Source: an uncultured Chloroflexia bacterium
Lineage (GTDB): Bacteria; Chloroflexota; Limnocylindria; QHBO01
Length of the DNA stretch: 64,000 bases
Direction of reading: 5' to 3'
Assembly (NCBI GenBank): GCA_963837425.1
Contig: CAWINH010000002.1
Location: 355,175 to 419,174 of the forward strand
In this document: piece after piece, positions 1 through 61,146 of the stretch
Numbering within the stretch: position 1 is the first letter of the stretch
Layout: each line of letters begins with the position of its first letter
The notes under the pieces: generated by a model
Databases searched by the model: none
What the model saw: the letters and a program-made list of their open reading frames with translations, nothing else
What the model was told of the DNA's origin: nothing
Made by a program: the position numbers and the translations under genes

Positions 1-239
1 GCATCGCAACCCGTCGTACGACCCTATTGAGAACCCCGACTTCCAGATCCGCACCGGCGAGATCCAGTACATCGTCTGGGACTCCTTCTCGGCGCTCCGT
101 TCAACGTTCTTCTCCGCGAGAATCCAGGACTATGCGAACCGCTACCACGGAAGGGTGGTGCACACCGAGTCGATCGTGGTGAAGACACCGAGCGCGAGCC
201 GGCGAGCATCCCGGTCATCGTCATCTACGAGGTGCGACC

Positions 240-1581
240 ATGAAGCGACTCGTGCTGGCCGCCTGCATCGGCGTCCTCTCGCTCTGGCTTCCGTCCGGGA
301 TCGTGCGGGCCGCCGGGCCGGCAACGCCGCTCGAGCACCTGGTCGTGCTCATGCAGGAGAACCACACGTTCGACAACTATTTCGGCACCTACCCCGGCGC
401 GGATGGGATACCGGCCGGGCGTCTGCATGCCGGTCGATCCGGCGGCCCCTGACGGCGAGTGCATCGCGCCGTTCCATCTCGGCGACCTGAACGTCACTCT
501 CGATGACCCGGACCACTCGAACACGACGAGCGTGCTCCAGTACGACGGGGCAAAGATGGACGGCTTCGTCTACGCCCTCGACCAGAAGAACCAGGACGGG
601 CGCCTGGCGATGATGTACTACGACGGCGGCCAGATGTACCCTACTACTGGAACCTCGCGGACCAGTACGTGCTGTTCGACCGCTGGTTCAGCTCGTTCGC
701 CGGCCCCAGCTTCACGAACCACGTGTACTGGGTGACCGGGTCGCGGACCCGACCCGAATCCCGCCATCCAGAACCTCGACGCCTTTCCCACCATCTTCGA
801 CCGGCTGGAGGCGGCCGGAGTCAGCTGGAAGTTCTACGTCGAGAACTACGAGCCGGGCCACCATCGGCCCCGCTACAGCACCCGGCCGATCGCCGGCCCA
901 GGTCGTCTGGATGCCGTTGCTCAGCTACGACCGTTTCGTCGACGATCCCCAGCTGAACAGCAAGATCGTGGACCTCGAGCAGTACTACACGACCGCCAAG
1001 GGCAGCCTCCCGGCGGTCGCCTACATCGCCCGGCCGGGGCCAGCGAGCATCCGCCGGGAAGCATCCGGTCCGGCCAGCGCCTCGTCCGCCGCTCGTCCAG
1101 GCTGATGCGGATCAGCCCGTGGGACTCCTCGGCGCCTCTGGTCACTACGACGACTGGGGAGGCTGGTACGACCACGTGACGCCCCCGCAGGTCGACGCCT
1201 ACGGGTACGGGTTCCGGGTCCCCGCCTTCCTGGTCGGCCCATACGTCCGGCGTGGGTACATCGACAGCCTCACGCTCGATTACACCTCCGCGCTGAAGTT
1301 CATCGAGGTCAACTGGGGCTCGCGCCGCTCCGGTCGCGAGCCGCAGGGCCGAAGCCTTCCTCGACGCCTTCGACTTCACGAAGCCGCCCCGGACTCCGGT
1401 GATCTTCGGGATGGAGCGGACGACCGTCAGCCTTGGGCAGGGCGCGCACCGAGAGGTGATCTACGTGGCCTATGCGATCGCCGTGCTGCTCGTCATCGGC
1501 GCCATTGCGCTCGCCGCCATGCGCCGTCGCCGGGAGTCCGAGGTCGGATGGGAGGCGTCGCAGCAGGGCCCCGCCCCATGA
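240..1581 (+). pseudogene. Phospholipase C / acid-phosphatase family phosphoesterase (PF04185-like), secreted with C-terminal TM anchor, disrupted by at least 5 frameshifts
   Basis: Consecutive ORF pieces in different frames (240, 403, 669, 911, 1119, 1399) together rebuild a single phosphoesterase. Motifs seen: LVVLMQENHTFDNYFGTYPG, GYGFRVPAFLVGPYVRRGY and the C-terminal AFLDAFDFTKPP followed by a hydrophobic anchor. It ends with an ATGA overlap into the next gene. Confidence 0.6.
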
Positions 1582-3515
1582 GGCGCACGATGCTGGCGCG
1601 CGGCGTCGTGCTCGGTTGCCTGGCGATTGCGCTCTCCGTTGCCCACGCGCGCGGCGCCGGACCGATCCGGACCACGATTGCGATTCGCCCGCCGGCGGCG
1701 GTGGCCCTCGGCGACCATCCGGAGGTGGTCGTCGACGTGCGTGTGACCGGTGGCGGCCCGTTGCGCGGAGCGCCCGTCGAGCTGAGCATCGATGGCGTTC
1801 TGTACCGGCGCCATTCGACCGATGGCTCCGGCGCCCCGCCCTTCACCCTGCCGAACGACCTGGCGGCCGGCGACCATCGGATCAGCGCCTTCTATCCCGG
1901 TCTGTCGACGACCTACCTGGCTACCTCGACGACCGCGACCCTGGTGGTGAATCCGTTCGAGCTGACGATCGAGACCGTCCCGTCGCTGCCCGGCATGCCG
2001 TTCACCCTCGACGGGGAACGCTTCGTGGCGGGCGACGACGGGGTCGCGCGGACGACGGTGAGCGCCGTCGGTGAGCACGTGCTCGTCGCCCTCCCCGAGG
2101 AGTACCAGCCGGGCGCCCTGCGTGCCGAGTTCAGCCGCTGGAGCGCCGGCAACGAGTTCCGGCCCCAGCTGACGATCAGCGTGCCGAACGTCGGCCCGCT
2201 GCAGGCCGGGTTCGACGTCTTCAGGCCCATGTCTCAGAGCTTCATCGACCTGTCGGGAGCTGCGATCGACCCGGGACGCATCACCTCGATCACCCTCCGC
2301 AGCAGCCTCGGCGAGGTGCTGACCTACCCCGACGGGCAGTCGCGCTTCTTCAAGGCCAGCCGCACGGTCCACCGCTCATCGGGGCTCGAGCCCGTCGACG
2401 TGCGGTACAACGTCACCGACGTCGAGGTCGACGGCTCGAACGTCGTGAATGCCGGTCAGCAGCAGCTCTACGTGACGCCCGATGCGGTCTGGCGCATCAC
2501 GCTCCTCCTCTATTCAGCGCGAGTCCAACCCAAGGACGCGTTCTTCGGCTTCACCGCCGGAAGCTCGATCGAGGTGATCTACCCGAGCGGGAAGACGGAG
2601 GTGGTTCCGGCTGGGCCCGATGGCGTGGTGGTGGTCCAGGGCCTGGCTCGAGGCATCTACCGGATGACGGTCGCCGACGCGCCGGGCTGGGCGCCGGCAA
2701 TGCCGGTCGCACTGTCGAGGGATCAGCAGGTCGAGCTGCGGGTCGTGAGCTGGGTCGACATGGCCGCCGCCGCGCTCGTCGGCTTCGTCGTCCTGTTCGG
2801 ACTCCTGATCCGTGGCCGACCGCACCTCATTGGCAGCACGTCGAGGCCTGTCGGCGAGGTCACGGCCGAGCCGGGAATCCCGTGGCCGGCCGGCTCCCCG
2901 CTGGCGCTGGCCCGGGCCGAGATCGAGGTGGCTCCTCCCGAACCCATCGAACCGCAGCTGGCCGAGGCGGAGCCCGTGAGCCTGACGACCGGCCGGATGC
3001 GCCCGCTGCTCGCCAGCCTGCCCGTCGAGTCGACCCTGGAAGGAGCCGCCTCCCGGCGGGTCGGCGTGAGCGAGCGGCGGAGGGGTGAGGATCAGCGCGT
3101 CTTCGGCTCGAGTGCGCTGCTCGCGTCACCGTTGCGCGGGTACGACCTCGGGGCAACCGATCGGGCCACGGCGCCGCGCGCACCGGCCACGCTCCACCGG
3201 CGACTGACATCTGCCCGCAATGGGAGGGTCCTCAAGGTCCTCTCGACGGTGCCGGTGAGGCCGGTGAACGTGGTCGACCCGGCGCTTCGAATACCCACCA
3301 CCAGGGCCGCGATCCGTCACGATCCGGCACCGACCGTGCCGCGGGTCGAATCGGCCCATCCGGCGACCTCCGAGCCAGTCTGCGAGGCGTGCGGATCGCG
3401 CCTGTGGGGCGGGGCGCTGTACTGCGAGGAGTGCGGGCGCCGGGTTCGCGAGCCGCGGCGCGTAAGCATCGGCTCGCCGGCCCGCGAGGCCGGCCCGCGA
3501 GGCTCGCCGGCATGA
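1578..3515 (+). CDS. Membrane protein, paralog 1: signal peptide, Ig-like (Big-type) beta-rich ectodomain, single TM helix, disordered cytoplasmic tail, C-terminal zinc ribbon (CEACGSRLWGGALYCEECG)
   Basis: Intact 645 aa ORF starting at the ATG at 1578. The N-terminus (MRRTMLARGVVLGCLAIALSVAHA) is hydrophobic. The ectodomain has a repeated pattern V.V.V.GGGPL.G.PVELS.DG typical of bacterial Ig-like folds. A TM helix (MAAAALVGFVVLFGLLIRGRPHL) precedes a C-terminal CxxC-(11)-CxxC. It is about 70-75% identical to the next gene across the ectodomain and TM region. Confidence 0.6.
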   Translation: MRRTMLARGVVLGCLAIALSVAHARGAGPIRTTIAIRPPAAVALGDHPEVVVDVRVTGGGPLRGAPVELSIDGVLYRRHSTDGSGAPPFTLPNDLAAGDHRISAFYPGLSTTYLATSTTATLVVNPFELTIETVPSLPGMPFTLDGERFVAGDDGVARTTVSAVGEHVLVALPEEYQPGALRAEFSRWSAGNEFRPQLTISVPNVGPLQAGFDVFRPMSQSFIDLSGAAIDPGRITSITLRSSLGEVLTYPDGQSRFFKASRTVHRSSGLEPVDVRYNVTDVEVDGSNVVNAGQQQLYVTPDAVWRITLLLYSARVQPKDAFFGFTAGSSIEVIYPSGKTEVVPAGPDGVVVVQGLARGIYRMTVADAPGWAPAMPVALSRDQQVELRVVSWVDMAAAALVGFVVLFGLLIRGRPHLIGSTSRPVGEVTAEPGIPWPAGSPLALARAEIEVAPPEPIEPQLAEAEPVSLTTGRMRPLLASLPVESTLEGAASRRVGVSERRRGEDQRVFGSSALLASPLRGYDLGATDRATAPRAPATLHRRLTSARNGRVLKVLSTVPVRPVNVVDPALRIPTTRAAIRHDPAPTVPRVESAHPATSEPVCEACGSRLWGGALYCEECGRRVREPRRVSIGSPAREAGPRGSPA

Positions 3516-6043
3516 GCCGATCGGTCGTCGGATGGGGATTCGGGCTGGCGCTGCTGGTGGCGATCCTCTCGATCGGGCAGGCCCAGGCGGCGGGTCCCCT
3601 GGCCGTGGGGGTCAGCTTCCGGCCGGTCGACCCCGTCGTCATCGGCAACGGCGCGACCGTCGTCGTTGAGCTGCGCGTGGTGGGTGGCGGGCCGCTGTCG
3701 GGGGAGCCGGTGGAGCTCAGCCTCGACGGGACGTACTACCGTCGCTCACGCACCGATGCCTCGGGCGCCGTGGCGTTCCCCCTTCCCAAGGACCTTGTGG
3801 CCGGTACTCACCCGCTGACCGCGGTCTATCCGGGACGTTCGAACACCTACCTGCCCGCGAGCGCGAAAGCGTCGCTCGAGGTTACCCCGTACCAGCTCCA
3901 GGTCCAGACCGTGCCGTCGCTTCCCGGGATGGGGTTCACCCTGGATGGGACCCGCTTCGTGGCGGGTGCCGATGGGTACGCTCGCATCCCGGTGTCGACC
4001 CCCGGCGATCATGTGCTCATCGCGCTCGACACGGAGTATGCGGCCGCCGGCACCACGGCGCAGTTCTCGCGGTGGACAGTCAACAACGAATACAGCCGCC
4101 AGGTGACGGTGAGCGTCCCGAAGGTCGGCCCGGTGCAGGCCGGATTCGACGTCTCCCGACCGGCCAGCCAGGTGTTCGTGGATCCGAGCGGGGGGCTCGT
4201 CAAAGCCGATCGCATCACGTCGTTCACCCTGCGGAGCAGCCTTGGGCAGGTGCTGACCTATCCCGACGGCCGGGAACGCGTCTACAAGGCCAGCCGCGTC
4301 GTGCGCCGCTCATCGGGCCTCGAATCGGTTGACGTCCGCTACAACGTCACCGATGTCGAGGTCGACGGTTCGAACGTTGTGAACGCCGGCCAGCAGCACT
4401 TCTACACCGCCCCCGACGCGGTCTGGCGGATCTCCCTGCTTCTCTACTCCGCGCGCATCCAGGCCAAGGATGCCCTGTTCGGTTTCACCGCCGGCAAGGC
4501 GGTGGAGATGATCTACCCGAGCGGGAAGTCGCAGATCGTCGACGTCGGGTCCAACGGCGAGGTCTACATTCCCTGGCTCGCGCGCGGGATCTACCGCGTG
4601 GCCGTGGCGGATGCCCCCGGCTGGGCCCCGTCCATGCCGGTCGCCCTCTCCCGCGACCAGGAGGTGGAACTTCGTGTCATCAGCTACCTCGACATGGGCG
4701 TCGCGGGGGCCGTGGCCCTGATCGTCATCTTCGGGCTCCTGCATCGCGGACGGCCGCACCTCATCCGCGACGCGGCGCGGGCGGTAGGTGCGGGTGTGTC
4801 CGGGCTGCGGCTGCCGCTCCCGGGAGCGGCTCACGCGCCCGCAGCCATGCGGCGGCCCGCGGAAGGGGAGCCGACGGCGAATGCCAGCCCACCACCCGTC
4901 GTCGCCAGCCCCCCACCCGTCTTGGCCAGCGCACCGAGCACTGCCACCCAGCAGCCGCAGCTCGCCCAGCAGGCAACCGAGGGCAGCGCGAAGGTCGCGC
5001 CGATCCTGGCAACGATTGCCAGGCGGTCGGACATCGACGCACTCGACCGCGTGGCTCTCGCCCACCATCGGACGATGGGCGTCAACGTTCCGGTGAGCCC
5101 CGACCTGATCGAGCTGGCGCCCTCGCTCTTCGGTCCGCAGGTCGACGAGCCCCCGCCCCCGACGAAGCCGAGGCCGACACCTCTTCCTCCGTTGCGGGCA
5201 CCCGAGAGCGCGGTCGGGGACGCAGCGCCGGCTCCGACCCCCGCAGCGCCGGCTCCGACCCCCGCAACGCCGGCTCCGGCCGAGCTCGCCGCGGAAGCGG
5301 CACCAGGCGTTGCCGATGAGTCGCTGCCATCGAAGCCCGCCCGGACCAGGCGGGCTGCAAAGCGTCCCACCACGAAGAAGGTGACGGAACCGTCGAAGGC
5401 CGTCAGGGCGAAGCGATCAACGGCCAACGCGGCACCCGCGGACGCCACGAGCGCCCCGAAGCGCGCGGCTGCGCCGAAGGCTGCCAAGACGAAGGTTCCC
5501 CGAAAGAAGGCAACCGCCACGACACCGGCGCGACGAGCGCCGGCGAAGGCCGCGAGTCGGCAGACGTCCGCATCGGCGAAGCGGACGGTCCGGAAGAAGG
5601 CGGCTCCAAGCGCTCCGCGCCGCGATTCGAGCCGGACGGTATCGGCGACTCGTGCGAGCTCGACCACGCCGGCATCCGGCACCCGGGAGACTGGCGGGAC
5701 CCGGCCGTCACGCACCCCCCGCAAGCCAGCGGCGGGGCGCTCGAGCCAGGCGGCGGTGTCGGGGGCCGCCGGGCAGCCGGTGGATGAACCGACCGAGACC
5801 CCGCCCAAGGGCGCGGAGATGCAGGCATGCCGCAACTGCGGGCTCGAGCTGTGGGCGGGCGCATCGTATTGCCGCCGCTGCGGCGAGCCGACGATTGGCG
5901 CCGGCGCCACGGACGATGCGCCGAGCGCTGGCCCACGCAGTCCGAAGCGGACGGCGACGCCTCGCGGTCGCAGTCGCCGCCGGCCGGCCACCCCCTCGGC
6001 GGGTTCCACTCGGGCCCGCGGCTCACGGCGAGGCAAGGGATGA
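3512..6043 (+). CDS. Membrane protein, paralog 2: same architecture as 1578-3515 but with a ~360 aa Lys/Ala/Pro-rich histone-H1/HU-tail-like cytoplasmic region before the C-terminal zinc ribbon (CRNCGLELWAGASYCRRCG)
   Basis: Intact 843 aa ORF whose ATG at 3512 overlaps the upstream stop (ATGA). It shows high identity to paralog 1, for example ITSFTLRSSLGQVLTYPDG and VDVRYNVTDVEVDGSNVVNAGQQ. The tail contains KRAAAPKAAKTKVPRKKATATTPARRAPAKAA-type repeats and an APAPTP tandem repeat at the DNA level (5215-5285). Confidence 0.6.
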   Translation: MSRSVVGWGFGLALLVAILSIGQAQAAGPLAVGVSFRPVDPVVIGNGATVVVELRVVGGGPLSGEPVELSLDGTYYRRSRTDASGAVAFPLPKDLVAGTHPLTAVYPGRSNTYLPASAKASLEVTPYQLQVQTVPSLPGMGFTLDGTRFVAGADGYARIPVSTPGDHVLIALDTEYAAAGTTAQFSRWTVNNEYSRQVTVSVPKVGPVQAGFDVSRPASQVFVDPSGGLVKADRITSFTLRSSLGQVLTYPDGRERVYKASRVVRRSSGLESVDVRYNVTDVEVDGSNVVNAGQQHFYTAPDAVWRISLLLYSARIQAKDALFGFTAGKAVEMIYPSGKSQIVDVGSNGEVYIPWLARGIYRVAVADAPGWAPSMPVALSRDQEVELRVISYLDMGVAGAVALIVIFGLLHRGRPHLIRDAARAVGAGVSGLRLPLPGAAHAPAAMRRPAEGEPTANASPPPVVASPPPVLASAPSTATQQPQLAQQATEGSAKVAPILATIARRSDIDALDRVALAHHRTMGVNVPVSPDLIELAPSLFGPQVDEPPPPTKPRPTPLPPLRAPESAVGDAAPAPTPAAPAPTPATPAPAELAAEAAPGVADESLPSKPARTRRAAKRPTTKKVTEPSKAVRAKRSTANAAPADATSAPKRAAAPKAAKTKVPRKKATATTPARRAPAKAASRQTSASAKRTVRKKAAPSAPRRDSSRTVSATRASSTTPASGTRETGGTRPSRTPRKPAAGRSSQAAVSGAAGQPVDEPTETPPKGAEMQACRNCGLELWAGASYCRRCGEPTIGAGATDDAPSAGPRSPKRTATPRGRSRRRPATPSAGSTRARGSRRGKG

Positions 6044-6387
6044 GGGCCGTGAAGCGTCTGACGCTGATCTGGTGCGCGGCCATTCTTGTGACGGCCGGCC
6101 TGGCGGGACCACCCCCGGCGGCTGCGGCAAGCCCCGGAGCCTCGCCGATCCCGGTCCTCGCCTATTACTACATCTGGTATGACCCATCGTCGTGGGATCG
6201 GGCCAAGTCCGACTATCCGATGCTCGGCCGCTACTCGAGCGACGATATCGAGGTCATGCGCCAGCACATTCGCTGGGCCAAGGATGCGGGGATCTCCGGA
6301 TTCATCGTCAGCTGGAAGAGCACCACGACCCTGAACCGCCGCTTGGAACAGCTGATCCAGGTCGCGGATCCGAATCGTTCGAGCTAG
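6040..6387 (+). pseudogene. Truncated secreted glycoside-hydrolase-like protein: signal peptide plus the first ~90 aa of a TIM-barrel-type domain
   Basis: ATGA overlap with the upstream gene. The sequence MRAVKRLTLIWCAAILVTAGLAG looks like a signal peptide. It is followed by YYYIWYDPSSWDRAKSDYPMLGRYSSDDIEVMRQHIRWAKDAGISGFIVSW, which resembles the N-terminus of GH99-like / GHL-type hydrolases; the family assignment is uncertain. The ORF stops after 115 aa exactly where the GC content drops. Confidence 0.35.
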
Positions 6388-8989
6388 CAATCAGTTATCC
6401 AGGGGCTGCAAAACCAACAACGGCTCCGCTCGACGCGACGCACATCGCCACAACCTCGACCAGTTCATCGGGGATTACGCCACCGATGCAGCATTCAACA
6501 TATCAGCAGGCCACTCGTCCTCTCATCAAGGACCTCGGGAGTACAGCGTCGCCGAACATGAGGAGCATCATCAATTCGACGAAGCACGACGCCTGCGGCT
6601 CCGAGCAGCGAATTCGCCCCGGCATCGTGACACTGCTTTGCAGCGACTGAAGTAACGAAGGATCACCGTTTGGCGGGCATCGTCGACGGCGATGCGTACT
6701 ACGTATTCGGTGGAACCCGACCGCGTAGCCCGAATACCCCGCCCAAGCTCGCCCGGAGTGCGAGATACAATGAAGGAACCAGCGGATCTCGATCGCCCCG
6801 GCGGGGCCGGGCTTCGATGCCGTCTGATCGGGGCACAACGGTCGTTGAATCGGAAGGACAGCGACACCCTGCGACGGGAGCTCGATGCGGCCTACGGTTC
6901 CTGGCCGGACACGGTGGGGGTCATCGAGCTCAACGGGTTCAGAAGGAACGGCGAGGTCGAGCCGAGCCTGAACTACAGCAACAACTAGCTCTGGGTCCCT
7001 CGCTGACATGATGGACAACGGGCACCAGAGGATACCCGATCTCGACTCGCCGCAGCCGACCTGGGTACCGTCTCGACGCCCGGGAACGACATGGTCGAGC
7101 CGGATCCTCACGCTCTGCCTCATCGTCGGGCTCCCCTCATCAGGAAGTAAGCATTCATCATTCACAGCAGACAAAGTAAGGCCGATTTCGGCTCGGCGTA
7201 CAGCGGCTGATCCCCGCCGAACGCGAGACAGACCGTCAAGAACAAGATAAAGAGGTGAAGGATGACGACCGCGCTGGAGGAGTCGGACTCATCCAGATTT
7301 CTTCACTAGGCGGCGGCTCCGCGCCTGCCGCTCTGCGTGAAGACGAAGCCGCGTGTTCGGCTTCACTCGCCCTCGACAGATCAGCGATAGTATCCCGACG
7401 TCGCGCTCGAGAAGATCAGCTCCTCGGCCGATGGAACAAGCTGAAACCAACCGCCCCAACGGCATCGACGATGGGGACTCAAGGTCCTGATGCACGTCGC
7501 ACATCGAACACACGAACCGCCGGATCGGGTCAAGAAGCTCGGGGGGAGTTCCGCTGGACGGATCAGGAACCAGCATCGCGCGCCGTCCAGCGCGAGCTGG
7601 CGACGACCCGACCCAGCACCCAGGCGGTGGTGATGGCGATTCGGAATGCGCACGAATACCGATCCAGATCGTGCTGCCCGGTGGCGAGGATGCGCCTCGG
7701 TGCCGCTGACCGTCGAGAGCGGGGCCGAGGCACGATGAGGGACCGTCGCGTGGCCGGGGGGTCCGGCCGGCCGGCCGTGCCGTGATCGAACAGTCGTTGC
7801 TGACCGGGGGCCTGGTCGCCGCCGGCCCCTTGCCGTCGCATTGCTCCTCGCCACCCTGCATGCCGATGACCCGGCGGACGGGCGTCGAGACCCGGGCTCC
7901 GGAGCCGGGGGAGCGGCATCATCTCGGGCCCCGCGTCGCCGAGCGCATCGCCGGTAGACCGCCGCCCGCCTCAGCGAGCCCAACCGCCTCGAGCACCGTC
8001 TCGGCTCTGCCCTCCCCACGGCACGACGCCTCCCGCCCGCCCGTCCCCAGTTAGGCACGCCCACCCGGCACAGCCCAGCCCGCCGGCCGAAGCCACAGGC
8101 CGACCACAGGCCGACGGCCGCGCTGCCGAGGCCGATCACAGCGACGTCCCGGCGCATTTTGCAATTCCGCGCCGCGTTTCTACTAGCATGGTTTCCCGAG
8201 GCATGGAAGCAGCAGGAAATGATTCCTTCCGCTCACTATCGACCATCGATCAGTTTCTGCGATCGAGAATCGAGCCGCGTGGTGAGAGAAACCCAGAGTC
8301 GCCGCGATCCGGTACCGGAAGGATCAGGTCGGATGCTCGCGTCGTCGTAGGAACACGGCAACCAGTTCAACGACGGGATGACCGAGCTCCTCAGCGCCAC
8401 GGCGCCGGACGACGTTCCGGTGGACGGTCTGCTGCGGGGGCAAGAGCCCGGGCGACCATCGGCCTCCCGGTCCACGAGCGAAGCCTGCGCGTACCTGCGC
8501 CCGATACAGCTGCGGATCAGCGCCGGGCTTCTTCCGAGTCGACGTCGGGTGGTGGACTTCATCTACGCCGACGGCGCGGACCGCTGCGGCATCCATGGAG
8601 AATCGCTCGTCAGCGGCCGACGTTGGCATCGGGGCCTACATCGTCCTCAGGTCTTTAGCGGCTTTCGCTCCTGCGGCAACCGAGCCCGCTGGCTCGCACC
8701 AGTGCAGCCCCTGCGGTCTAAATCGTTGAGCGCAGGCCAGCTCAGCTACGTCATGGCTTCCCAGGCTTTCTGGAAGGCGGACAGAGGCCACCGCGCGGCT
8801 CCCGGCGCGACGTCGCGCGATCGTCGCCGGAGCGGGCGTCGGCATGGTCGGCAGCGGACCCCGTTCCAGCTCGTCACGACGTTCAACGATGGGCGAAGGG
8901 ACGGGCGTCGAGAGCGCGACCGACTCGGCGTCGTCGTCGGGATTTCCGACAGTACCTCGACATCCTCCACCGACGCGAGTGCAGATACG

Positions 8990-10405
8990 TAGGCCGCGTC
9001 CCGGCTCAGCCTGGAGCGGGACCGTGCTGACCTGGCCGTCGGGCGTGTCACGCACCTCGATGCCCATGGCCGCCAGCTCGCCGCGGAGCGCATCCGAGGT
9101 GGCGTAGTCGCGGGCCTCCCGGGCGGCTGCGCGGCGTTCGAGGAGCTCCGCGGCGCCCCGGGCAGCTCGGTCGGCGCCGCCTCGGCCGGGGTCGAGCCCA
9201 GGCCCAGCACGCGGTCGAAGTCCAGCAGCAGCGCGCGGCGCTGGGCCGGCCGAGGTCGTCGGCGCCCGCCACGGCGTGCGCGACCGCCAGGGCGGCCGGC
9301 AGGCCCAGGTCGTCGCTGACCGCGTCGACGAAGCGGGCGCGGTAGGAGGCCAACGGCTCGGCGGCGAGGTCAACACGGCTGGCCGATCCGGCCTCGGCGG
9401 CCGCCCGACGCAGGCGCCGCAGGCCGGCGCTGGCGGCCTGCATGGCGTGTTCGGTGAAGTCGAGCTTGGACCGATAGTGGGCAGTGAGCGCCAGGTAGCG
9501 GAAGGCGAGCGGCTCGAAGCCCTTGGCGGGCAGGTCGGTGACGCGGATGATGTTCCCCGCCGACTTGGCCATCTTGGCCTCCGCCATGGTCAGGAACTCG
9601 CCGTGCATCCAGATGCTGACCACCGGATGACCCAGCACGCCCTCGCTCTGGGCGATCTCGTCCTCGTGATGGGGGAACTTGAGGTCGATCCCGCCGGTGT
9701 GGATATCGAACTGCTCGCCGAGGTACTTGACGCTCATGGCGGAGCACTCGATGTGCCAGCCCGGGAAGCCCTCGCCCCACGGCGACGCCCACTTCATGAC
9801 GCGACCCGGCTCGGCGGCCTTCCACAGCGCGAAGTCCTCCGGGTCGCGCTTGTCGGTCTCGACCTCGACGCGATGGCCGGCCCTCATCTGCTCCAGGCGC
9901 TGCCCGGACAGCTTCCCGTAGCCGGTGGGAAGGCGCTGACGTCGTAGTAGACGTTGCCCGCCACCTCGTAGGCCAGCCCGTTCTCCAGCAGGGCTGCCGT
10001 CATCTCGATCATCTCCCCGATGTGCTCGGTCGCGCGCGGCATGACGTCGGCGGGCGCCATGTTGAGCAGCCGCTCGTCGGTCAGCCAGGCATCGGTGTAG
10101 AACTCGGCGATCTGGGCCGGGGTCTTGCCCTCGACTTCGGCGGCCATCAGGATCGGGTCTTCGCCGGTCTCGCGCATGTGGCCCACGTCGGTGATGTTCT
10201 TCACGTAGCGGACCTCGTAGCCGAGGTACTCGAGACGCGCGCAGCAGGTCCCCGAACAGATAGGTCCGCAGGTTGCCGATGTGCGCGTAGCGGTAGACGG
10301 TGCTGCCGCAGGTATAGATCCCGACGCGTCCGGCGAGACGGGGACCAGCGGCTCGACCCGGCGCGTGAGCGAGTTGTAGAGGCGAATGGGAGGCAGGGGC
10401 GCCAT
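8990..10405 (-). pseudogene. cysS: Cysteine--tRNA ligase (CysRS) disrupted by at least 3 frameshifts (pseudogene of a paralog, or assembly indels)
   Basis: The N-terminus MAPLPPIRLYNSLTRRVEPL and the segment LEYLGYEVRYVKNITDVGHMRE sit in one frame. YTCGSTVYRYAHIGNLRTYLFGDLL, HIECS and the KMAKSAGN (KMSKS-like) motif sit in another frame. The C-terminus, ending ...LRGELAAMGIEVRDTPDGQVSTV, is in a third frame. The 3' end coordinate is approximate. Confidence 0.6.
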
Positions 10406-10459
10406 GGCCCGCGCATTGTACCGATGCGGCGGCGGAGCCCCCGCGAGACGGGCCGGCGC

Positions 10460-12285
10460 TCAGCTCGACTCGGCCTCGAACGTCGTCTCGCCGGCGGCCG
10501 CCTCCTCGCGCAGCTGCCGCAGCGCGCCCTGGTCGATGCCGCCGAATCGCGGCAGGTCGCGGATGCTGGCGCTGCGCGCCAGGCGCTCCTGCATCTTGCC
10601 CAGCACCAATGCCGAGAAGTCGGGCGCGGCCATCAGGTGGCGCAGGGTGTCCGCGGGGACCTCGAGCAGGATGGTCGGCTCCTGGGCCACGACATCGGCC
10701 GTCCGCGGGCTGCCGGTGAGCGCGGCGATCTCGCCGAACACATCTCCGGCCCCCATGCTCGACAGCGACCGGTACTCGCCCGAGGCGCTCGAGCCGGCCA
10801 CCGTCCGCCGAGAGGACGAAGTAGGCCGAGTTGCCGGTGTCGCCGGCGCGGGTGATGACCGTGCCGCTCTCCGCGTCCAGCACGCGGGCGCTGCTCACCA
10901 GGGCGTCGCGGTCACGCTGCGGGAGCCCGGCCAGGGCCGGGATGTAGCGCCCCAGGGCCTGCACGTCGGCCAGCGTGGCCCGGCGCCCGGTACCCACTCG
11001 CGCGGCGGTCGGGGCGGTGCGCAGCAGCTGGATGGTGCGGCGCCACTCGGCGGCCGGCTGGCCGATCCCCGGCAGCAGCGCGCCGGCCAGGGCGGTGACC
11101 ACCAGGGCCAGCGAGCTGATGAGGAACAGGGCCCGAACATCGAAGACGTCGGCGAAGCCGGCCAGGCCCATCCCGACCAGGTAGACCACGTCGCGCACCA
11201 CGTAGTTGGTGCTGAACACGCGGCCGCGCATCTCGCGCGGAGTGTTGCGCTGGGCGATGAGGCGGCCGGCCACGAAGGAGGGCGCGTTGAGGATGCCGGA
11301 GATGCCGATCAGGCTGATGGCCAGCCAGACGCTGGACGAGAGGGCGTAGGCCACGCCGGCCAGGCCCATCCCCAGGAAGCTGAGGACCAGCCAGCTGCCC
11401 TCGCGCAGCCGCTCCGCGTAGCGGGCCATCAGCAGGCTGCCGACCACGAAGCCGACCGAGGTGATGCCCTCCTGCAGGCCGTACTCGAACTCGGTGGCCT
11501 TGAGCACCTCGATGGCGAACGGCAGGAGCAGCACGTTCTGGAGGCCGAAGATGACCATGATCGGCGTGCGCAGGATGTTCATGGACGCGTAGGACCGGCG
11601 TCTTCCAGATGAACCGCGCGCCAACCGCCAGGTTGCGCACGACGTCGCCCACGGTCGTCTGCTCCTCGACCTCGAGCGGCGCAATGGTGACCAGCAGGAT
11701 CATCAGGCCGGAGAAGAGGAACGTGCCGGCATCGATGTAGAAGACGAGATCGGGCGCAATGCCGATGAGCAGGCCCGCGAGCGCGAAGCCGATGGCGGTC
11801 GACCCGAACTGGGCGATGGCCATCAACGAGTTCGCGGCGGCGAGCTCCTCGTCCGAGGCGATCTCGGGCAGCACGCTGTCGTTGGCCGGATCGAAGAACT
11901 GCTGGACCGATGCGGAGAGCAGCACGATCACGTACAGGCTGATGATGCTGTCGGTGGCGTGCAGGCTGATGGGGATGGCCGCCACCAGCCCGGCGCGCAG
12001 GATGGTGCTCACGACCATGATCGTCTTGCGGTTCCAGCGATCCACGAAGACGCCCGCGATGAGGCCGAAGAGGAGCGTGGGGGCGGCCGAGACCATGAGC
12101 ATGATCCCGACGTTGAGGATCGACCCCGTGCGCTGGAAGACGATGATGCCCGCGGCCAGCGAGGTCAGCGCGTCGCCGATGGTGGAGACCAGCTGCCCGG
12201 TCCACAGGTAGACGAAGAAGCGGTTGCGGAAGACCGCGAATGGGCCGACGGGAGCCGGGGGGGCTGATGGGGAAGCGGCAGTCAC
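10460..12285 (-). pseudogene. MFS transporter fused to a C-terminal cyclic-nucleotide-binding (cNMP) domain, carrying at least 2 frameshifts
   Basis: The 12 TM-type MFS sequence is split over two frames (10912-12285 and the 9048-11684 frame). The cNMP domain is in a third frame (10460-10801): GDVFGEIAALTGSPRTADVVAQEPTILLEVPADTL. Confidence 0.55.
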
Positions 12286-12385
12286 CGGGTTCCTCCGTGT
12301 GGTCGGCGGGCGGGCAGCCGGAGTCCGCGTGGGTCGCAGCGCATTCTGACAGCCGCGGTCGCGCGGTGCGGCCTCGCTCTACCAT

Positions 12386-12977
12386 GGGCGTCATGTCGCA
12401 CGCCGCCGAGCAGTACCCGCTGACGCTGGGCGAGGAACCAGCTTCTGCCCGGCCTGTGGCCGCCCGGTCGAGGCGCGCGTCCTGGAGCCGGACCACCGGC
12501 CGCGCCTGGTCTGCCCCGGGTCACGTCACCTGGCGGAACCCGAGGATGGTGGTCGGCACGCTCCCCATTCGTGACGGCCGGGTCTTCCTGGCGCGGCGCG
12601 CCATCGAGCCGCGCAGCGGCCGGTGGACTCACCCCGGCGGCTTCCTGGAGCTCGGCGAGGCGGCGCAGGAGGGCGCCCGTCGCGAGACGGAGGAGGAGAC
12701 GCAGCTCAAGGTCAGCGTCGGGCGCCTGATCGGCGCCTATTCGCGGCCGCGGGCCGGCGTGGTGACCATCGTCTACGAGGCGGACGTGGTGGGCGGGGAG
12801 CCGCTGCCGGGGGCGGAGACGAGCGAGGTGCAGGCTTTCGGCCCCGAGGAGATCCCGTGGGGCGAGCTGGCCTTCACAACCACCGCGTCGGCGCTGCGCG
12901 ATTGGATCGCCTCGCTGCCGGGCCACGGGCCGCGGTTCGAGCCGGAGCTGTACGTCACCGGCGACCCCGCGGACTGA
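12386..12977 (+). pseudogene. NUDIX hydrolase with an N-terminal zinc ribbon, frameshifted twice around the zinc ribbon
   Basis: The Nudix box GGFLELGEAAQEGARRETEEETQL lies in frame 0. The zinc ribbon FCPACGRPVEARVLEPDHRPRLVCPG is readable only in another frame between about 12440 and 12515. Confidence 0.5.
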
Positions 12978-13019
12978 GGCCCTGGCCGGCCTCCCGCCGT
13001 ACTCGGCCCCGTTCCCCGG

Positions 13020-13400
13020 CTCATTAGGCCCGTTGATGCATCCGCGGGGGAAGCCCGGTTCCGGCCGCGTTTCGTCCCCCTCCCCCACCCCGGCCCATAG
13101 GGGGTCCCTCAACCCGGCCCGTTCCCCGCGCTCCCCTCCCGGCCCCATATGCGGGGATCAGGCCTGCGCCAGGGGGGGTCCCGGGGGACCCCCCCCCCGC
13201 CCCCCGGCGGCCCTCCCTCCCCCGCCCCGCCCACCCGGGCCGGGCCCCGCCCCCGCGCACCCCTCCCCCCCCCCCCCGCGGGGCGGGTGGCCGGGGGGCG
13301 GGGAGCCAGCCGGGCCGGACAACGCCCCGGGCCTGGCCCGGGAAGGGGCGGGCCCTGACCAGGGCCCCGGGAGACGAAAGTCGGCGCGCGACGTCAGCCC
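13020..13400. repeat. C-rich/G-rich low-complexity block with homopolymer runs up to 13 nt and degenerate CCGGCCC-N-GGGG units; candidate G-quadruplex/i-motif tract or assembly artefact
   Basis: Direct reading of the sequence shows cccccccccc, ccccccccccccc, gggggggg and repeated ccggccc...gggg units. The block sits in the ~440 bp convergent intergenic space between the NUDIX gene and the fabF paralog. Confidence 0.5.
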
Positions 13401-13419
13401 GGATGACGCGGGTTCGCGC

Positions 13420-14670
13420 TCAGACCGGGCGGCGGAAGACGGCCACCGCGTTCTGGCCGCCGAAGCCGAAGCCGTTGATGATTGCCACCCCCACGTCCGC
13501 TCTGCGCGCCAGGTTGGGGACGTAGTCCAGGTCGCAGGCGGGGTCGGGCGTCTCGTAGTTGATCGTGGGCGGGATCAGTCCGTCGCGGATGGCCAGCACC
13601 GCGGCCAGGGCGGACATCGCGCCGGCCGCGCCCAGGGTGTGCCCGATCATGCTCTTGTTGCTGCTCACCGCCAGCCTGGGCGCGTGGTCGGCGAAGGCCG
13701 CGTGGATGGCCCTGGTCTCGGTGGCGTCATTGAGCGGGGTGCTGGTGCCGTGGGCGACCACGTAGTCCACTTCCTCCGGCTCGACGCCCGCGTCGCGCAG
13801 GGCGCGCTGCATGGCGCGGGCCGCGCCGTCACCCGGAGGGGTCGGGTGCGCTGATGTGGAACGCGTCGCCGGTCAGCGCACCGCCGGCGATCTCGGCGAT
13901 GACGGTGGCGCCGCGCGATGGGCGTGCTCGGCCGACTCGACCACCAGGATGCCGGCCGCCTCGCCGAAGACGAAGCCGTCGCGTCTGGCATCGAACGGCC
14001 GCGAGGCATGCTCCGGCTCGTCGTTGCGCTTGGAGAGGGCGCCCATGTTGGCGAGCGCGGCGAACGCCACCGGCAGGATCGCGCTCTCGGTGCCCCCGGC
14101 AACCACCGCGTCGGCGTCTCCGTGCTCGATCATGCGCTGCGCCTCCACGAACGCCTGCACCCCCGAGGCACAGGCCGCCACGCTGGTGACCACCGGGCCG
14201 CGGAGCCGGTTCTGGATGCTGATCTGGCAGGCGGCCATGGAGGGGGAGAGCATGGGCACCATGAACGGGCTGACCCGCGTCGGTCCCTGCTCGAGATAGA
14301 CGCGCTCCCCGAGGGCCACCTCGCCGATCCCGCCGCCGCCGGTGTTGACGACCACGGCGATGTCATCCCGGTTGGCGTCGCTGATCTCGAGGCCGGAATC
14401 ATCGATCGCCTGGCGGGCGGCGGCCACGGCCAGCTGGCTGAATCGGCTCATGCGGCGCGCGGCCTTGAAGTCCATCCAGTCGCGTGGCTCGAAGCCCTTC
14501 ACCTCCGCCGCGATCTGGACCTCCTCGCCGGAAGGGTCGTAGGCGGTGATGCGGGCCACGCCGCTGACGCCACCGGTCAGGTTGGACCAGTAGCTGGCCA
14601 CGTCATTGCCGATGGGGCTGATGACGCCCATGCCGGTGACGACGGCTCGACGGGCGGGGTCGCGGCTCAT
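13420..14670 (-). pseudogene. fabF: 3-oxoacyl-ACP synthase II paralog (KAS II), interrupted by two closely spaced compensating frameshifts with an internal stop
   Basis: The N-terminal 265 aa (13873-14670) and C-terminal 130 aa (13420-13812) are in the same frame. Between them, about 75 bp (13813-13915) is in the wrong frames; the correct peptide [28 protein letters not shown] is readable in a third frame. Confidence 0.6.
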
Positions 14671-14679
14671 CGGGCTGCC

Positions 14680-15963
14680 CTAGGCCTCGTAGCGGCGCAC
14701 GATGACCGTGCTGTTGTGGCCGCCCAGCCCCATCGAGTTGGAGAGGGCCACCCGCACGTCCGCGGCGCGCGCGGTGTTCGGGACGTAGTCCAGGGTGAGC
14801 TCGGGGTCGGGGTGACGGTAGTTGATGGTGGGCGGGATGCAGCCGGTCTGCACCGCCTTCACGCAGACGTAGCCCTCCAGCGCCCCGGCGGCGCCCATGA
14901 GGTGTCCGGTCATGCTCTTGGTGGAGCTCACCGCCAGCCGCTCGGCGTGCGCACCGAAGACCTCGCGAATCGCGGTCGTCTCGTAGCGGTCGTTCAGCGG
15001 CGTGCTCGTCCCGTGGGCGTTGATGTAGTCGACCGCCTCGGGACCGATGCCGGCCCGCGCCAGCGCCGCTCGCATCGCGCGCTGGTTGCCCTCCCCCCGC
15101 TCGGCCGGGGCGGCCATGTGGAACGCGTCGGCCGACGAGCCGTAGCCGATCACCTCGGCCAGCGGGGTCACGCCGCGGGCCAGGGCGTGTCCCAGCTCCT
15201 CGAGGACCAGCACCGCCGAGCCCTCCGCGATGACGAAGCCGTCGCGGGTGGCGTCGAAGGGCCGGCTGGCCTTGGTCGGATCGTACGCGCCGGTGTCCGG
15301 GTCGACGGGAGAGCCGAGCGCCTTCATCTGCTGGAACCCGGCCAGCGCCAGGGGCACCACCACGGCCTCGGCGCCCGCCCCCAGCATCAGGTCAGCCTGG
15401 CCGCGCACGATGGCCTCCATGGCTTCGCCGATGGCGTGGCCGCCGGTGGCACAGGCGCTGACCACGGCCATGTTGTGCCCGCGCAGCCCGTACTGGATGC
15501 CCACCATTCCTGACGCCGCGTCCGGGATCATGTGCGGCAGCAGGAAGGGCGAGACGCGGCCGGGGCCGCGCTCGAGGAGGGTCTGGATCCCCTCGCTCAT
15601 GATCCCGATCCCGCCGATGCCGGTGCCGAAGACGATGCCGAAGCGGTCGCCATTGGCCTGGGCCGGGTCGAGGCGCCCGTCCGCGGCCAGCAGGCCGGCC
15701 CGGCGCAGCGCCTCGCCCGCGGCGGCCACTGCGAAGTGCGTGTTGCGGTCATGCCGGCGCGCGTCCTTGGCGTCCATGTACTGGGTGGCGTCGAAGCCCT
15801 TGACCTCGCCCGCGACGTGGACCTCGAATGCCGACGTGTCGAAGAGGGTGATGTCTGCGATGCCGGAGCGGCCCGCGGTCAGGGCCTCCCAGGTCGCACC
15901 GTCCCCGATGCCGACCGGCGAGACGACCCCCACGCCGGTGACGACGGCCCGGCGGTCGCTCAC
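14680..15963 (-). CDS. fabF: 3-oxoacyl-[acyl-carrier-protein] synthase II (KAS II), intact
   Basis: KAS II motifs are present: [25 protein letters not shown] and GHLMGAAGALE. A GTG start at 15963 overlaps the fabD stop (GTGA). Confidence 0.8.
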   Translation of the reverse strand: MSDRRAVVTGVGVVSPVGIGDGATWEALTAGRSGIADITLFDTSAFEVHVAGEVKGFDATQYMDAKDARRHDRNTHFAVAAAGEALRRAGLLAADGRLDPAQANGDRFGIVFGTGIGGIGIMSEGIQTLLERGPGRVSPFLLPHMIPDAASGMVGIQYGLRGHNMAVVSACATGGHAIGEAMEAIVRGQADLMLGAGAEAVVVPLALAGFQQMKALGSPVDPDTGAYDPTKASRPFDATRDGFVIAEGSAVLVLEELGHALARGVTPLAEVIGYGSSADAFHMAAPAERGEGNQRAMRAALARAGIGPEAVDYINAHGTSTPLNDRYETTAIREVFGAHAERLAVSSTKSMTGHLMGAAGALEGYVCVKAVQTGCIPPTINYRHPDPELTLDYVPNTARAADVRVALSNSMGLGGHNSTVIVRRYEA

Positions 15964-16934
15964 GATGGGAGCCAGGCGGCGAGACCCCCGGGGGCGTCGG
16001 TGGCGTGGGCGCTGGTGTCGGGCGCGATGCGGCGGATCAGGCCGGTGAGCACCCGGCCGGGCCCCACCTCCACGAAGTCGGTGACCCCGTCGGCGGCCAT
16101 GCGGCGCACGGTGTCGGTCCACTGCACGCCGTGCACCAGGTGCTCGGTCAGCTCCTTGCGCAGCCCGTCGGCCGTCTGGATCATGCTGGCATGCACGTTC
16201 CCGAGCATGGGCACGCGCGGCTCGCGGAACGGGACCTTGGCCAGGATCTGGCCGAACTCGTCGCGAGCGCGTCGCATGAGCGGGGAGTGGCTCGCCACGC
16301 TGACGGTGAGGCGCACCGCCTTGCGGGCGCCAATGGTCTTGCTCATCTCGAGCGCGAAGACGAGGGCAGGGATGACGCCGGAGAGCACGATCTGTCCCGG
16401 CGCGTTGGCATTCGCGACCCCGATCTCGCCGTGCTGCCGCGCGTGCTCGACGACCTCGTCAACCTGTTCGTCGGAGAGGCCGATGACGGCCCCCATGCCG
16501 CCGTCGATGCCGCGCTCCTGCATGATCCGTCCCCGCTCCCGGACCAGGTGCAGCGCCTCCTCGAAGTCGATGGCATCGGCGGCAACCGCAGCGGCGTACT
16601 GGCCTGCCGAGTGGCCGGCCAGGACCCGGGGAGCCAGCTCCAGGCCGGCGGCGGCTGCCTGGGCGCGCAGCGCCTCGAGATAGGCGACGCTGGTGGCCAG
16701 GATGGCGGGCTGGGCGTTGACCGTGAGGTCCAGGTCCTCGGCCGGTCCCTCGAGGATCATCCGGGTCAGCGGAAAGCCCAGCGCCCGATCCGCGCGCTCC
16801 ATCACCGCGGCCGCCTCCGGCGAGTGCTCGAGCAGGGCGGCGCCCATCCCCACGTACTGCGAGCCCTGGCCGGGAAAGACAAAGGCATGCACGCGGGGGG
16901 GTGCGATGGACTGCGGGTCGGGTGGGTTCGTCAT
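15960..16934 (-). CDS. fabD: Malonyl-CoA:ACP transacylase
   Basis: FVFPGQGSQYVGMG and GHSAGQYAA motifs are present. The ATG overlaps the stop of the upstream M20 gene (ATGA). Confidence 0.8.
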   Translation of the reverse strand: MTNPPDPQSIAPPRVHAFVFPGQGSQYVGMGAALLEHSPEAAAVMERADRALGFPLTRMILEGPAEDLDLTVNAQPAILATSVAYLEALRAQAAAAGLELAPRVLAGHSAGQYAAAVAADAIDFEEALHLVRERGRIMQERGIDGGMGAVIGLSDEQVDEVVEHARQHGEIGVANANAPGQIVLSGVIPALVFALEMSKTIGARKAVRLTVSVASHSPLMRRARDEFGQILAKVPFREPRVPMLGNVHASMIQTADGLRKELTEHLVHGVQWTDTVRRMAADGVTDFVEVGPGRVLTGLIRRIAPDTSAHATDAPGGLAAWLPS

Positions 16935-18371
16935 GCTGAAACGTCAGTGTCTCGTATCCCGGGGAGTATAGCCGTCACCGCCGACCGCTCCCACTCGGGT
17001 GGCGGTCGATCAGGTGCAGAACGCTCCACGACCCGCTGCAGCACGGGCAGGCCAAAGGCCAGGGCGCTCACCGGCAGGCGCTCGTCGTTGGCGTGGAAGA
17101 GCGAGAGGAACGGCACCTGCGGGTCCAGGCGGAGAGGCATGAAGCCGTAGGTCGGGATGCCCAGCAGGCCCAGTGCCTTGGCGTCGGTGCCCGGCGTGAT
17201 CATCATCGGCAGCGGGGTCGCCTCGGGATCGGCTGCGGACAGGACCTCCCGCATGATCGTCACGATCTCGGCCGCGGCGGGCCATTCCACAGGGGGCATG
17301 GTCATCACCGCATCCACCGTCACCTCCGGCCCGGCCACCGCCTGCAGGTGCTCCAGGAAGGCCGCCTGGTCCGTTCCCGGCAGGGTCCGCACGTCGATCT
17401 CCGCTTCGCCGCTGCCGGGCACCACGTTCATCTTGGCGCCGGCGCGGATGACGTTGGGGGTGACCGTGTCGCGCAGCATGGCGTCGAGGGAGCGCCGCAG
17501 GACCGGGTCGGCCACGGCGTCGGCGAGCGCTGTCCGTGCCGCGGCCTCGTCACCCGGGCGGCCAGCTCCGCCACGTTGCCCAGGCCCAGTCCATCGAAGA
17601 ACCCCCGGACGACGGGGATCACCCGGGCCGGTCGCGGGTCGCCCGCCAGGCGGGTGATGGCCGTGGCCAGCTTGATCGCGGCGTTGTCCGGCGAAGGCAT
17701 CGAGCCGTGCGACGGCGTCCCGCTGGCCCGCACCCGGGTCCAGACGATCCCCTTCTCGGCCACCTGGATAGCGTATGACCGCCTTCCGTTAAGGGTGATC
17801 GAGTAGCCGCCGACCTCGTTGAGGGCGGCGGCGGCCGGCTGACCGGCGGCATCGGCGAAGAGATCGGGCCGCTGCTGCACCCAGTGCAGCGCCCCGTGCT
17901 GGCCGCCCGCCTCCTCGTCCGCCAGGGCGGCGAAGATGACCTCCCGTCGTCGCGCTGCGCCGGATCGCTGGAGCGCCACCATGACCTCCAGCTCCATGGC
18001 CACCATCTCCTTCATGTCGACCGCGCCGCGGCCCCAGACGGCGCCGTCCAGCAGCTCCGCGCCGAACGGGTCGCGCGTCCGCCGTCCGCCTCCACGGGGA
18101 CCACGTCCACGTGGGAGAGCAGGATGACCGGCGGCGCGGGGTTCGGCACGGTGGCGGGCAGCCGCGCGAAGCAGGAACCGCGGCCCGGGGCCGTCTCCAG
18201 CACCTCCGCCGGGATGCCTGCCGCGGTGAGCACCTCCGCGCAGTAGGCGGCGGCCGCGTCTCGCCGCCGGTCGAGTCGCGGCCGGCGGCGGTGTCGGTGA
18301 TCCCGGCGGGTTGACGCTCGGGATGCGGATAGCGCGCGGAGGTGATCCACGCAGGCGTCGAGAGCGGTCAT
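16931..18371 (-). pseudogene. M20 family metallopeptidase (ArgE/DapE-like), disrupted by at least 4 frameshifts
   Basis: The N-terminal pieces MTALDACVDHLRAL, IRIPSVNPPG and LLSHVDVVPV alternate between two frames. The GRGAVDMKEM motif and the dimerisation-domain C-terminus (16931-17515) are in further frames. Confidence 0.55.
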
Positions 18372-18399
18372 CCGCGCTACGGTACCGCAGCCCCGGCGG

Positions 18400-19310
18400 G
18401 CGATTAGCCGGCGCGCTCGGGTCGGCTCGGCCGCCGCGGAGACGCTCGCGCACCAGCCGGCCGAGCGGTAGCTCCAGCGCGAGCAGCACCAGGGCCACGA
18501 TCAGCAGCACCGGGAACCGGCCGGCCAGCCCCAGGACGAGCAGGCCGCCCAGGAAGAAAGCATGGATCATGACCCGCGTCGCAAAGGACAGGCGCAGCTC
18601 GAGGATGGCGGCCGGCACCACCCGGCTCTCCGCGATCCGGGCCCCAGACCCCCCGGGCGGCGATGCCGGCGAAGATCGCCAGGGTACCGCGAACAGACCC
18701 AGCCCGCCGCCCGGCCGGGTTCGGTCAGCGGCTTGAGCACGATGAACGGCAGCGCCCAGCAGCAGGATCCCGTAGGCGGCCAGCGGACTGAGGAGCTGGA
18801 GCCACTCACCCCGGGCGGCCGGCGGCCCGCGCGCGGATCCATCGGGTCACCAGGCTGAAGCCCAGGGTCACGAACAGCCAGGCGTAGAAGTTGCCGGCGG
18901 GGACGCCGAACCAGCCCTGGCGTGACCCAGGTTGGCCCAGGTCCAGAGGCCCATCCGGATCGCGATGGCGTCGAAGGCCAGGTCCAGGCTGATGGCCAGC
19001 ACGCTGTCGACGAAGGGCGCGTAGCGGCGGCGCACGCCCAGCGCGTCGGTCAGGCGCATGGCGCCGGCGATGATGAGGGCCCAGGTGAGGCCGATGACCC
19101 GGCGCGCGGTCGATGGTCAGCACCCAGTGCGGGCTGTAGTGGTAGCTCTCGAAGATGAGCTGGTCGCCCTCCTCCAGCAGGATGCCGAACACGGCCGCGG
19201 TGGCCAGCTCCAGGAAGGGGAGCCGGCCACGACGGAGGGCGGCGACTGCGGCGCCGATGAAGAAGAGGGCACCCCGATCTCGAGGCCGAGGTGACCGGAT
19301 CCATCCGCCC
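18400..19310 (-). pseudogene. Multi-pass membrane protein of unknown family, fragmented over three frames
   Basis: Hydrophobic segments AAVFGILLEEGDQLIFESYHYSPHWVLTIDRA, MRLTDALGVRRRYAPFVDSVLAISLDLAFDAIAIRMGLWTWANLG and FYAWLFVTLGFSLVTRWI read as one protein only after frame switching. Confidence 0.3.
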
Positions 19311-59420: not shown

Positions 59421-59596
59421 GCGACCACGTGAGACGGAGGTCAGAACCCATGCAACCCGAGCTGGGACGGCGGCCCTCGTGGTTTCGTCGTCTCTTTTCG
59501 TCCGGCGACTGCCGGTGCTGGCGCGTGGGGTCACTCCTGCTGCGCCTGTCCCGGAGCCGGTGATCGTGCGGCCGTGGGCCTGAGAAGGAGCTGATC

Positions 59597-59974: not shown

Positions 59975-60010
59975 CGAAACCAACGAGACCACGAGAAGGA
60001 GCACCGAACC

Positions 60011-60382: not shown

Positions 60383-60405
60383 CGAACCGCAAAAGGAGCC
60401 ATGAC

Positions 60406-60675: not shown

Positions 60676-60690
60676 CGAGGCCACGGTGCC

Positions 60691-61143: not shown

Positions 61144-61146
61144 GCC

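Follow-up and report, generated by a model that had tools for sequence, protein, structure and literature searches.

Small indels that split cysS over three frames in a Limnocylindria-like Chloroflexota contig very probably reflect unpolished long-read consensus

The window analysed here, a stretch of 64,000 nucleotides with a GC content of about 70%, carries on its minus strand a cysS gene for cysteine–tRNA ligase (CysRS) whose reading frame, as deposited, is interrupted. According to both six-frame translation and tblastn with an intact homolog, the CysRS motifs change frame repeatedly, which bears out the initial annotation that they are spread over three frames: three minus-strand frames from 10405 to about 9006 jointly encode a complete CysRS, none of them does so alone, and the intact homolog aligns as four frame-shifted segments. 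The gene had been placed at 8990–10405; the high end of this span holds, whereas the low end is slightly off, the likeliest stop being the TGA at 9008–9006. The gene and its pieces, the latter read by six-frame translation and tblastn, are as follows.

9006–10405, minus strand: cysS, cysteine–tRNA ligase, apparently the orthologous copy, with 6–7 small indels in the deposited sequence
10405–10334, minus strand: N-terminal piece, MAPLPPIRLYNSLTRRVEPLVPVSP
about 10333–10240, minus strand: piece with the HIGN motif, GRVGIYTCGSTVYRYAHIGNLRTYLFGDLL
about 10234–9928, minus strand: piece LEYLGY...YYDVSAFP
about 9925–9251, minus strand: piece GYGKLSG...WHIECSAM...FPHHEDE...KMAKS...GADDLG
9250–9159, minus strand: piece PAQRRALLLDFDRVLGLG...TELPG
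9158–9020, minus strand: piece AAELLERR...GIEVRDTPDGQVSTV

Joined by hand, the pieces give a protein of 463–468 amino acids whose best matches are full-length CysRS (E = 1e-250, 83% identity, 100% coverage) from uncultured Chloroflexota with the source names Candidatus Limnocylindria or Dormibacteraeota. A match of this strength is not due to chance, and the splitting is a real property of the deposited sequence.

The lesions were mapped by a DNA alignment (A1) of the window with two intact orthologs, those of contigs L001 and L002. Six or seven frame-disrupting indels were found in the deposited gene, about 0.45% of its bases; apart from six mapped lesions, the window gene is codon-by-codon colinear with both orthologs, the last codons being ambiguous.

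10333–10334, minus strand: site 1, 1 nt missing, TCG-CCGG versus ACGCCCGG in the orthologs (A1 column 73)
10239/40 and 10234/5, minus strand: sites 2a and 2b, one base missing at each, 6 nt apart (A1 columns 168 and 174)
9926–9927, minus strand: site 3, 2 nt extra, TTCCCACCGG versus TTCC--CCGG (A1 columns 482–483)
9250–9251, minus strand: site 4, 1 nt missing at the junction of ...GADDLG and PAQRRALLLDF (A1 column 1165)
9158–9159, minus strand: site 5, 1 nt missing, CCCG-GGGCG, at the junction of ...TELPG and AAELLERR (A1 column 1261)
9006–9022, minus strand: 3' end of cysS, where the deposited frame overruns the expected stop (six-frame translation and A1)

These sites were recovered by a frameshift-aware protein-to-DNA alignment with the CysRS of contig L083. 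Site 1, the shift between ...PVSP and GRVGIYTCG, appears there as −1 nt at residue 23; site 3, between ...YYDVSAFP and GYGKLSG, as +2 nt at residue 159, with a single missing base as the other reading; and sites 4 and 5 as −1 nt at residues 383 and 415. At sites 2a and 2b the window has GCG-CGCGT-CTCGAG versus GCGCCGCGTGCTCGAG in the orthologs, and the addition of both bases yields LLRRVLEYLGY, the reading found in homologs P0004, P0010 and P0101. A seventh indel probably lies near the stop, where a further base lost from the deposited sequence would, once restored, put the TGA at 9008–9006 in frame; we infer it only, as the C-terminus differs from homolog to homolog, with endings such as ...TTVRR or ...PSLARR before the stop. 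The three breaks originally pointed out, near 9940, 10270 and 10350, are thus real sites at about 9926/9927, 10234–10240 and 10333/10334, and they are joined by breaks at 9250/9251, at 9158/9159 and probably in the last codons (9008–9022).

Once the frame is corrected, the protein is a full-length member of the bacterial CysRS family. It scores 437.4 bits against the NCBIfam model TIGR00435 (cysS; cut-off 340) over profile positions 1–461 of 466, with the catalytic domain PF01406 (2e-103) and the anticodon-binding domain PF23493 (2e-10) in Pfam. An identity as the MshC-type paralog, which the initial annotation had brought into play, is not supported for this gene: with the mycothiol ligase model TIGR03447 it reaches 232.4 bits, below the cut-off of 485.1. 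The motifs YTCG, WHIECS and FPHHEDE, which we take to be the zinc-ligand sites of the E. coli enzyme, are present, and their columns are invariant in 120 homologs. Where the protein differs from the general family description is in its HIGN and KMAKS motifs. In the homologs, HIGN replaces the class I HIGH in 117 of 120 and KMAKS replaces KMSKS in 96 of 120; because intact homologs carry them too, both are clade-level variants unrelated to the frameshifts rather than damage.

The corrected protein retains every one of the 166 columns without variation among the 120 homologs, and 270 of the 276 in which conservation is at least 95%; of the latter, the homologs themselves violate 2.3 on average and 11 at most. 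Its mean identity to the family is 79.9%, as against 81.3% among the homologs. The dN/dS values of the window gene by the Nei–Gojobori method, 0.22 versus L001 and 0.16 versus L002, are matched by 0.21 between L001 and L002; differences from the two orthologs concentrate at third codon positions, and the 455 codons compared with them contain no in-register stop. Judged from these patterns, the gene is, apart from its indels, under normal purifying selection.

Frame switches across the window were located by codon-usage Viterbi segmentation; a sliding-window GC3 frame plot was dropped in its favour as too noisy. In the first 35 kb, at least ten genes besides cysS are broken, among them a FabF paralog, MoaE, an aldehyde dehydrogenase (ALDH), agmatinase and PsuG. 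The features mapped outside cysS are listed below.

235–1575, plus strand: phosphoesterase (PF04185) with at least 6 frame switches, a single domain match (profile 2–354 of 356) running across 5 junctions
10460–12285, minus strand: gene for an MFS_3 transporter with a fused cNMP-binding domain; two indels, near 11586 and 10805 (ortholog-guided alignment)
13423–14680, minus strand: second FabF paralog (FabF2), a −1/+1 indel pair at about 13916 and 13834, 82 nt apart
17000–19297, minus strand: M20 peptidase (5 indels) and Caroten_synth-family membrane protein (CarS, 7 indels), by Viterbi segmentation, Pfam and ortholog-guided alignment
25764–27209, plus strand: aldehyde dehydrogenase, 5 small insertions, 83% identity with its L083 ortholog, no stops or codon gaps
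34940–64000: clean stretch of 29 kb without an intragenic frame switch (Viterbi segmentation)

The indel damage along the window is patchy, with affected stretches at, among others, 1–1.6 kb, 9–12 kb, 17–19.3 kb, 22–22.7 kb and 25.8–27 kb. Error patches 0.5–3 kb long, in which the indel rate reaches about 0.5–1% of bases, alternate with clean stretches, and the clean 29 kb holds LeuRS, ComEC, Rho, PyrG, Obg and an HdrA-like open reading frame of 911 amino acids. After the −1/+1 pair in FabF2 the frame is regained following 27 out-of-frame codons, and the surrounding 5 kb or so is otherwise clean; the pair looks like a local consensus slip that is not part of a larger error patch.

Broken genes were checked by joining the segment translations, each in its own frame, and searching the product with Pfam. 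The domains recovered were:

Phosphoesterase: profile 2–354 of 356, 5 junctions spanned
Aldedh: profile 16–459 of 461, 3 junctions spanned
MoaE: profile 1–114 of 114, 1 junction spanned
Arginase: profile 2–277 of 280, 1 junction spanned
Indigoidine_A: profile 1–290 of 291, 1 junction spanned
Peptidase_M20: profile 2–204 of 206, 2 junctions spanned
Caroten_synth: profile 51–174 of 209, 3 junctions spanned
PpoB2: profile 20–181 of 188, 4 junctions spanned
MFS_3: profile 4–391 of 524, 1 junction spanned
cNMP_binding: profile 5–87 of 89, 1 junction spanned
Ketoacyl-synt_C: profile 2–119 of 119, 2 junctions spanned

Since the corrected translations give single, near full-length domains that are colinear with their profiles, larger deletions are absent. 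Compared with intact orthologs, cysS, MFS/cNMP, FabF2, M20, CarS and ALDH together contain 27–28 events, none of them longer than 2 nt. No internal stops occur in the ortholog-aligned window genes, the stops flagged by the aligner being confined to gene ends. Identity to the L083 proteins is also that of intact genes: 79% for the window cysS (80–84% for the intact orthologs of other contigs), 69% for M20 (70%) and 66% for MFS (64–67%). A uniform deletion bias was considered and dropped, as cysS and M20 have mostly −1 events and ALDH and PLC mostly +1 events. Homopolymer context was left unused as evidence; most sites lie in C or G runs of 2–4 nt, which is uninformative at 70% GC.

The gene next to cysS, reported at the outset as a similarly broken, co-oriented MFS–cNMP gene, does carry two indels (about 11586 and 10805). 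Its frame-corrected product has MFS_3 at residues 1–387 and a cNMP-binding domain at 457–537, both across junctions, and the gene is whole, with 603–624 amino acids, in L083, L084, L085 and L087. The order CarS–M20–FabD–FabF–FabF–Nudix–MFS/cNMP–CysS, in which the Nudix protein is of the Zn-ribbon type and encoded on the opposite strand, is conserved in L001, L083, L084, L085 and L087. Because the window gene fills this conserved slot beside MFS/cNMP, it appears to be the orthologous copy of cysS and not a stray duplicate. The pairing itself is a feature of this Limnocylindria-type cluster (9006–19297 in the window): an MFS_3 protein of about 600 amino acids with a C-terminal cNMP-binding domain is encoded next to cysS in every relative examined (L083, L084, L085, L087 and L001).

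Frame-disrupting events per gene were then counted in the relatives against the L083 proteins by frameshift-aware alignment; in L083 and L084 (both JGI) all cluster genes are called full length.

Window: CarS 7, M20 5, FabD 0, FabF1 0, FabF2 2, MFS/cNMP 2, cysS at least 5
L001 (ENA ERZ25039555 contig_2014, 545 kb): CarS 0, M20 3, FabD 6, FabF1 7, FabF2 14, MFS/cNMP 0, cysS 0
L085 (JGI): CarS and M20 outside the locus; FabD, FabF1, FabF2, MFS/cNMP and cysS all 0
L087 (ENA and NCBI, ERZ25039549): M20 1; FabD, FabF1, FabF2, MFS/cNMP and cysS 0

Relatives that were assembled independently thus have these genes intact, and in L001 it is other genes that are affected, as expected of an artefact. The indel rate rises to 1.1% of bases in FabF2 of L001. 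Like lesions in complementary, equally indispensable genes of the window and L001 are what random technical error would predict; selection-driven gene loss does not predict this pattern. The closest JGI relatives of the window share between 83% (CysRS) and 96% (HdrA-like) protein identity with it. At positions 3900–7470 of L001, 30 frame-disrupting indels, mostly of +1 nt, lie in M20, FabD, FabF1 and FabF2, and the public gene calls on this contig are fragmented likewise, with ketoacyl-synt in four pieces.

Taken together, the breaks in cysS are very probably uncorrected indel errors of 1–2 nt in an unpolished long-read consensus, with no biological feature behind them. The gene would be a normal, functional ortholog at a single position in the metagenome-assembled genome of an uncultured Candidatus Limnocylindria-like chloroflexote. 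Stretches covered by few reads, or by reads of mixed strains, would keep indel rates in the draft close to those of raw reads, and well-supported ones, the core-gene half of the window among them, would be polished clean; each remaining indel would shift the frame, so that cysS would look split over three of them. The patchiness presumably comes from locally low effective depth or from strain mixing. It is the complementary, patchy pattern that leads to this reading, and the lesions fit it in being of 1–2 nt, placed independently of gene function and unaccompanied by other signs of decay. The length of the contig (682,090 bp), which comes from a soil-type chloroflexote, and the Flye-style 'contig_N' names in sister assemblies (the relatives from ENA assemblies ERZ25039549 and ERZ25039555) suggest a long-read platform for the window as well. 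The artefact reading is drawn from the nucleotide sequence, and its link to any sequencing project is circumstantial. Against it, the damage is strongly clustered and at places follows gene borders: PLC is heavily damaged and the next 3.5 kb are clean, and PpoB2 is damaged next to a clean DUF1326 gene. Clusters that follow genes would be compatible with gene-wise pseudogenisation too. The mixed direction of the events and their location in short C/G runs instead of long homopolymers also count on the opposing side.

Errors of this kind are well documented. Indels in Nanopore assemblies shift the frame of called genes, and polishing is needed for bins below about 40x (PMC9262707); a large terrestrial and soil catalogue of long-read genomes was assembled with Flye, followed by a single Medaka round, and the authors checked the result for errors of this sort (PMC12313526); proovframe was motivated by the observation that complex samples seldom reach the depth needed for polishing (10.1101/2021.08.23.457338). 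The lesions in the window resemble known indel errors of Nanopore or PacBio CLR data, which are worst in low-coverage metagenome bins and detectable as proteins shorter than their homologs (PMC9262707; 10.1101/2021.08.23.457338), in the size of the events (1–2 nt) and in the apparent frameshifts in well-conserved genes. They differ in that the sites lie in short G/C runs at 70% GC instead of the usual long homopolymers, and in that the damage is confined to patches beside an error-free stretch of 29 kb.

This last feature has a possible, if somewhat unlikely, explanation in a variant of the artefact, namely a mosaic consensus of coexisting strains or a local misassembly with indels where divergent reads were merged. 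The alternation of 0.5–3 kb error patches with clean sequence, the cleanness of the conserved core-gene half (35–64 kb), and the 2.6 kb without coding signal that adjoin cysS beside a truncated GH99-like gene would agree with such a mosaic; however, the broken genes are not raised in substitution-level divergence, and the sequence contains no direct sign of mixing. The indels might instead be real, with cysS and a dozen neighbours recently inactivated in a gene-losing lineage and a second, divergent cysS charging Cys-tRNA. Several frameshifts per gene and broken genes among intact ones are indeed seen in reductive genomes, and Mycobacterium leprae-type pseudogenes share both traits. A contig search with the corrected CysRS, directed at the source genome and a second cysS, gave, among the matches listed, distant taxa only, at 55% identity or less. 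Unlike those pseudogenes, the genes of the window lack internal stops, loss of conserved residues, larger deletions and raised dN/dS; here essential single-copy genes are affected, and the lesions of a relative lie in other genes. In bacterial mutation spectra substitutions normally far outnumber indels, and for this reason tens of substitutions should accompany 6–7 real indels, but none of the 166 invariant residues is changed, no stop has arisen and no event exceeds 2 nt, with dN/dS at the level of the intact orthologs. The dozen neighbouring genes would have to share this history. Like lesions in L001 hit other, equally essential genes (FabD and FabF). Among the 120 best matches listed, no intact CysRS is more than 84% identical to that of the window, although the protein collection searched does include the proteins of the source assembly (9 of the 10 intact window proteins looked up occur in it verbatim, recorded from NCBI and ENA on one contig of 682,090 bp). 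We therefore consider inactivation improbable, and the decaying duplicate proposed in the initial annotation is not supported by the comparison either, given the orthologous slot in five related contigs, the score as cysS rather than MshC, the full set of invariant columns, the normal dN/dS and the lack of stops.

Real indels could also stem from an indel-only mutational burst in a soil Limnocylindria population, too recent for substitutions to have accumulated, for example through slippage-prone or repair-deficient replication, with survival by means of a second, divergent cysS or of neighbours; this is a very improbable course of events. If the indels were real, a free-living soil bacterium would have lost an essential aminoacyl-tRNA synthetase, a remarkable event that the evidence speaks against. 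Least credible of all, and close to negligible, is a bypass of real frame changes by programmed ribosomal frameshifting or transcriptional slippage, although an essential gene that is unreadable in one frame is a classic hint of recoding; it is the one hint found. At least six shifts of both signs would be required in a single gene, at sites that are not conserved, since all 120 homologs and the five syntenic orthologs have cysS as a single open reading frame and none requires a frameshift. Breaks of the same kind are scattered through many unrelated genes of the window, and inspection of the A1 junction sequences by eye showed no slippery X XXY YYZ heptamer. The +1 frameshift of prfB and the −1 frameshift of dnaX resemble the case in that the product needs more than one frame; they use one conserved site with a slippery or stimulatory sequence, in contrast to the six or more unconserved sites of both signs in cysS. 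Thus, of the three explanations first offered, assembly error is favoured by the size of the indels, the lack of decay and the complementary damage, and the decaying duplicate and programmed recoding are not upheld.

On the reading as consensus error, the window contig contains kilobase-scale patches with an indel error of about 0.5–1%, and so does at least one sister assembly. Automated annotation will list the essential genes cysS, fabD and fabF there as pseudogenes or fragments, and metabolic reconstructions, estimates of completeness, and scans for pseudogenes or recoding can go astray on such calls.

Directly downstream of cysS, 2.6 kb (6385–9010) are without coding signal in the codon-usage model. 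Their GC content is about 64–65%, compared with 70%, and the GH99-like gene at their left edge ends at profile position 99 of 341. Pfam in all six frames and Rfam gave no match in this stretch; tblastx and blastn against syntenic relatives returned compositional noise only, and there is no similarity to the rest of the window. Possible origins of the stretch are a misjoin, a patch very rich in errors, and true non-coding or foreign DNA.

Two further regions of the window are intact. At 1576–3502 and 3503–5149, with the phosphoesterase gene and its many frame switches immediately upstream, lie tandem paralogous open reading frames of about 550–640 amino acids, which share a signal-like N-terminal segment, a conserved body, a transmembrane segment and an extended tail of low complexity, to which the first adds a C-terminal zinc-ribbon-like CxxC...CxxC. 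At the other end, 59582–64000 holds a sulfur- or heterodisulfide-type cluster with an ArsR-like regulator and small DsrE-like and TusA-like proteins, all intact, in which the HdrA-like flavoprotein of 911 amino acids is 96% identical to a JGI 'heterodisulfide reductase subunit A2'.
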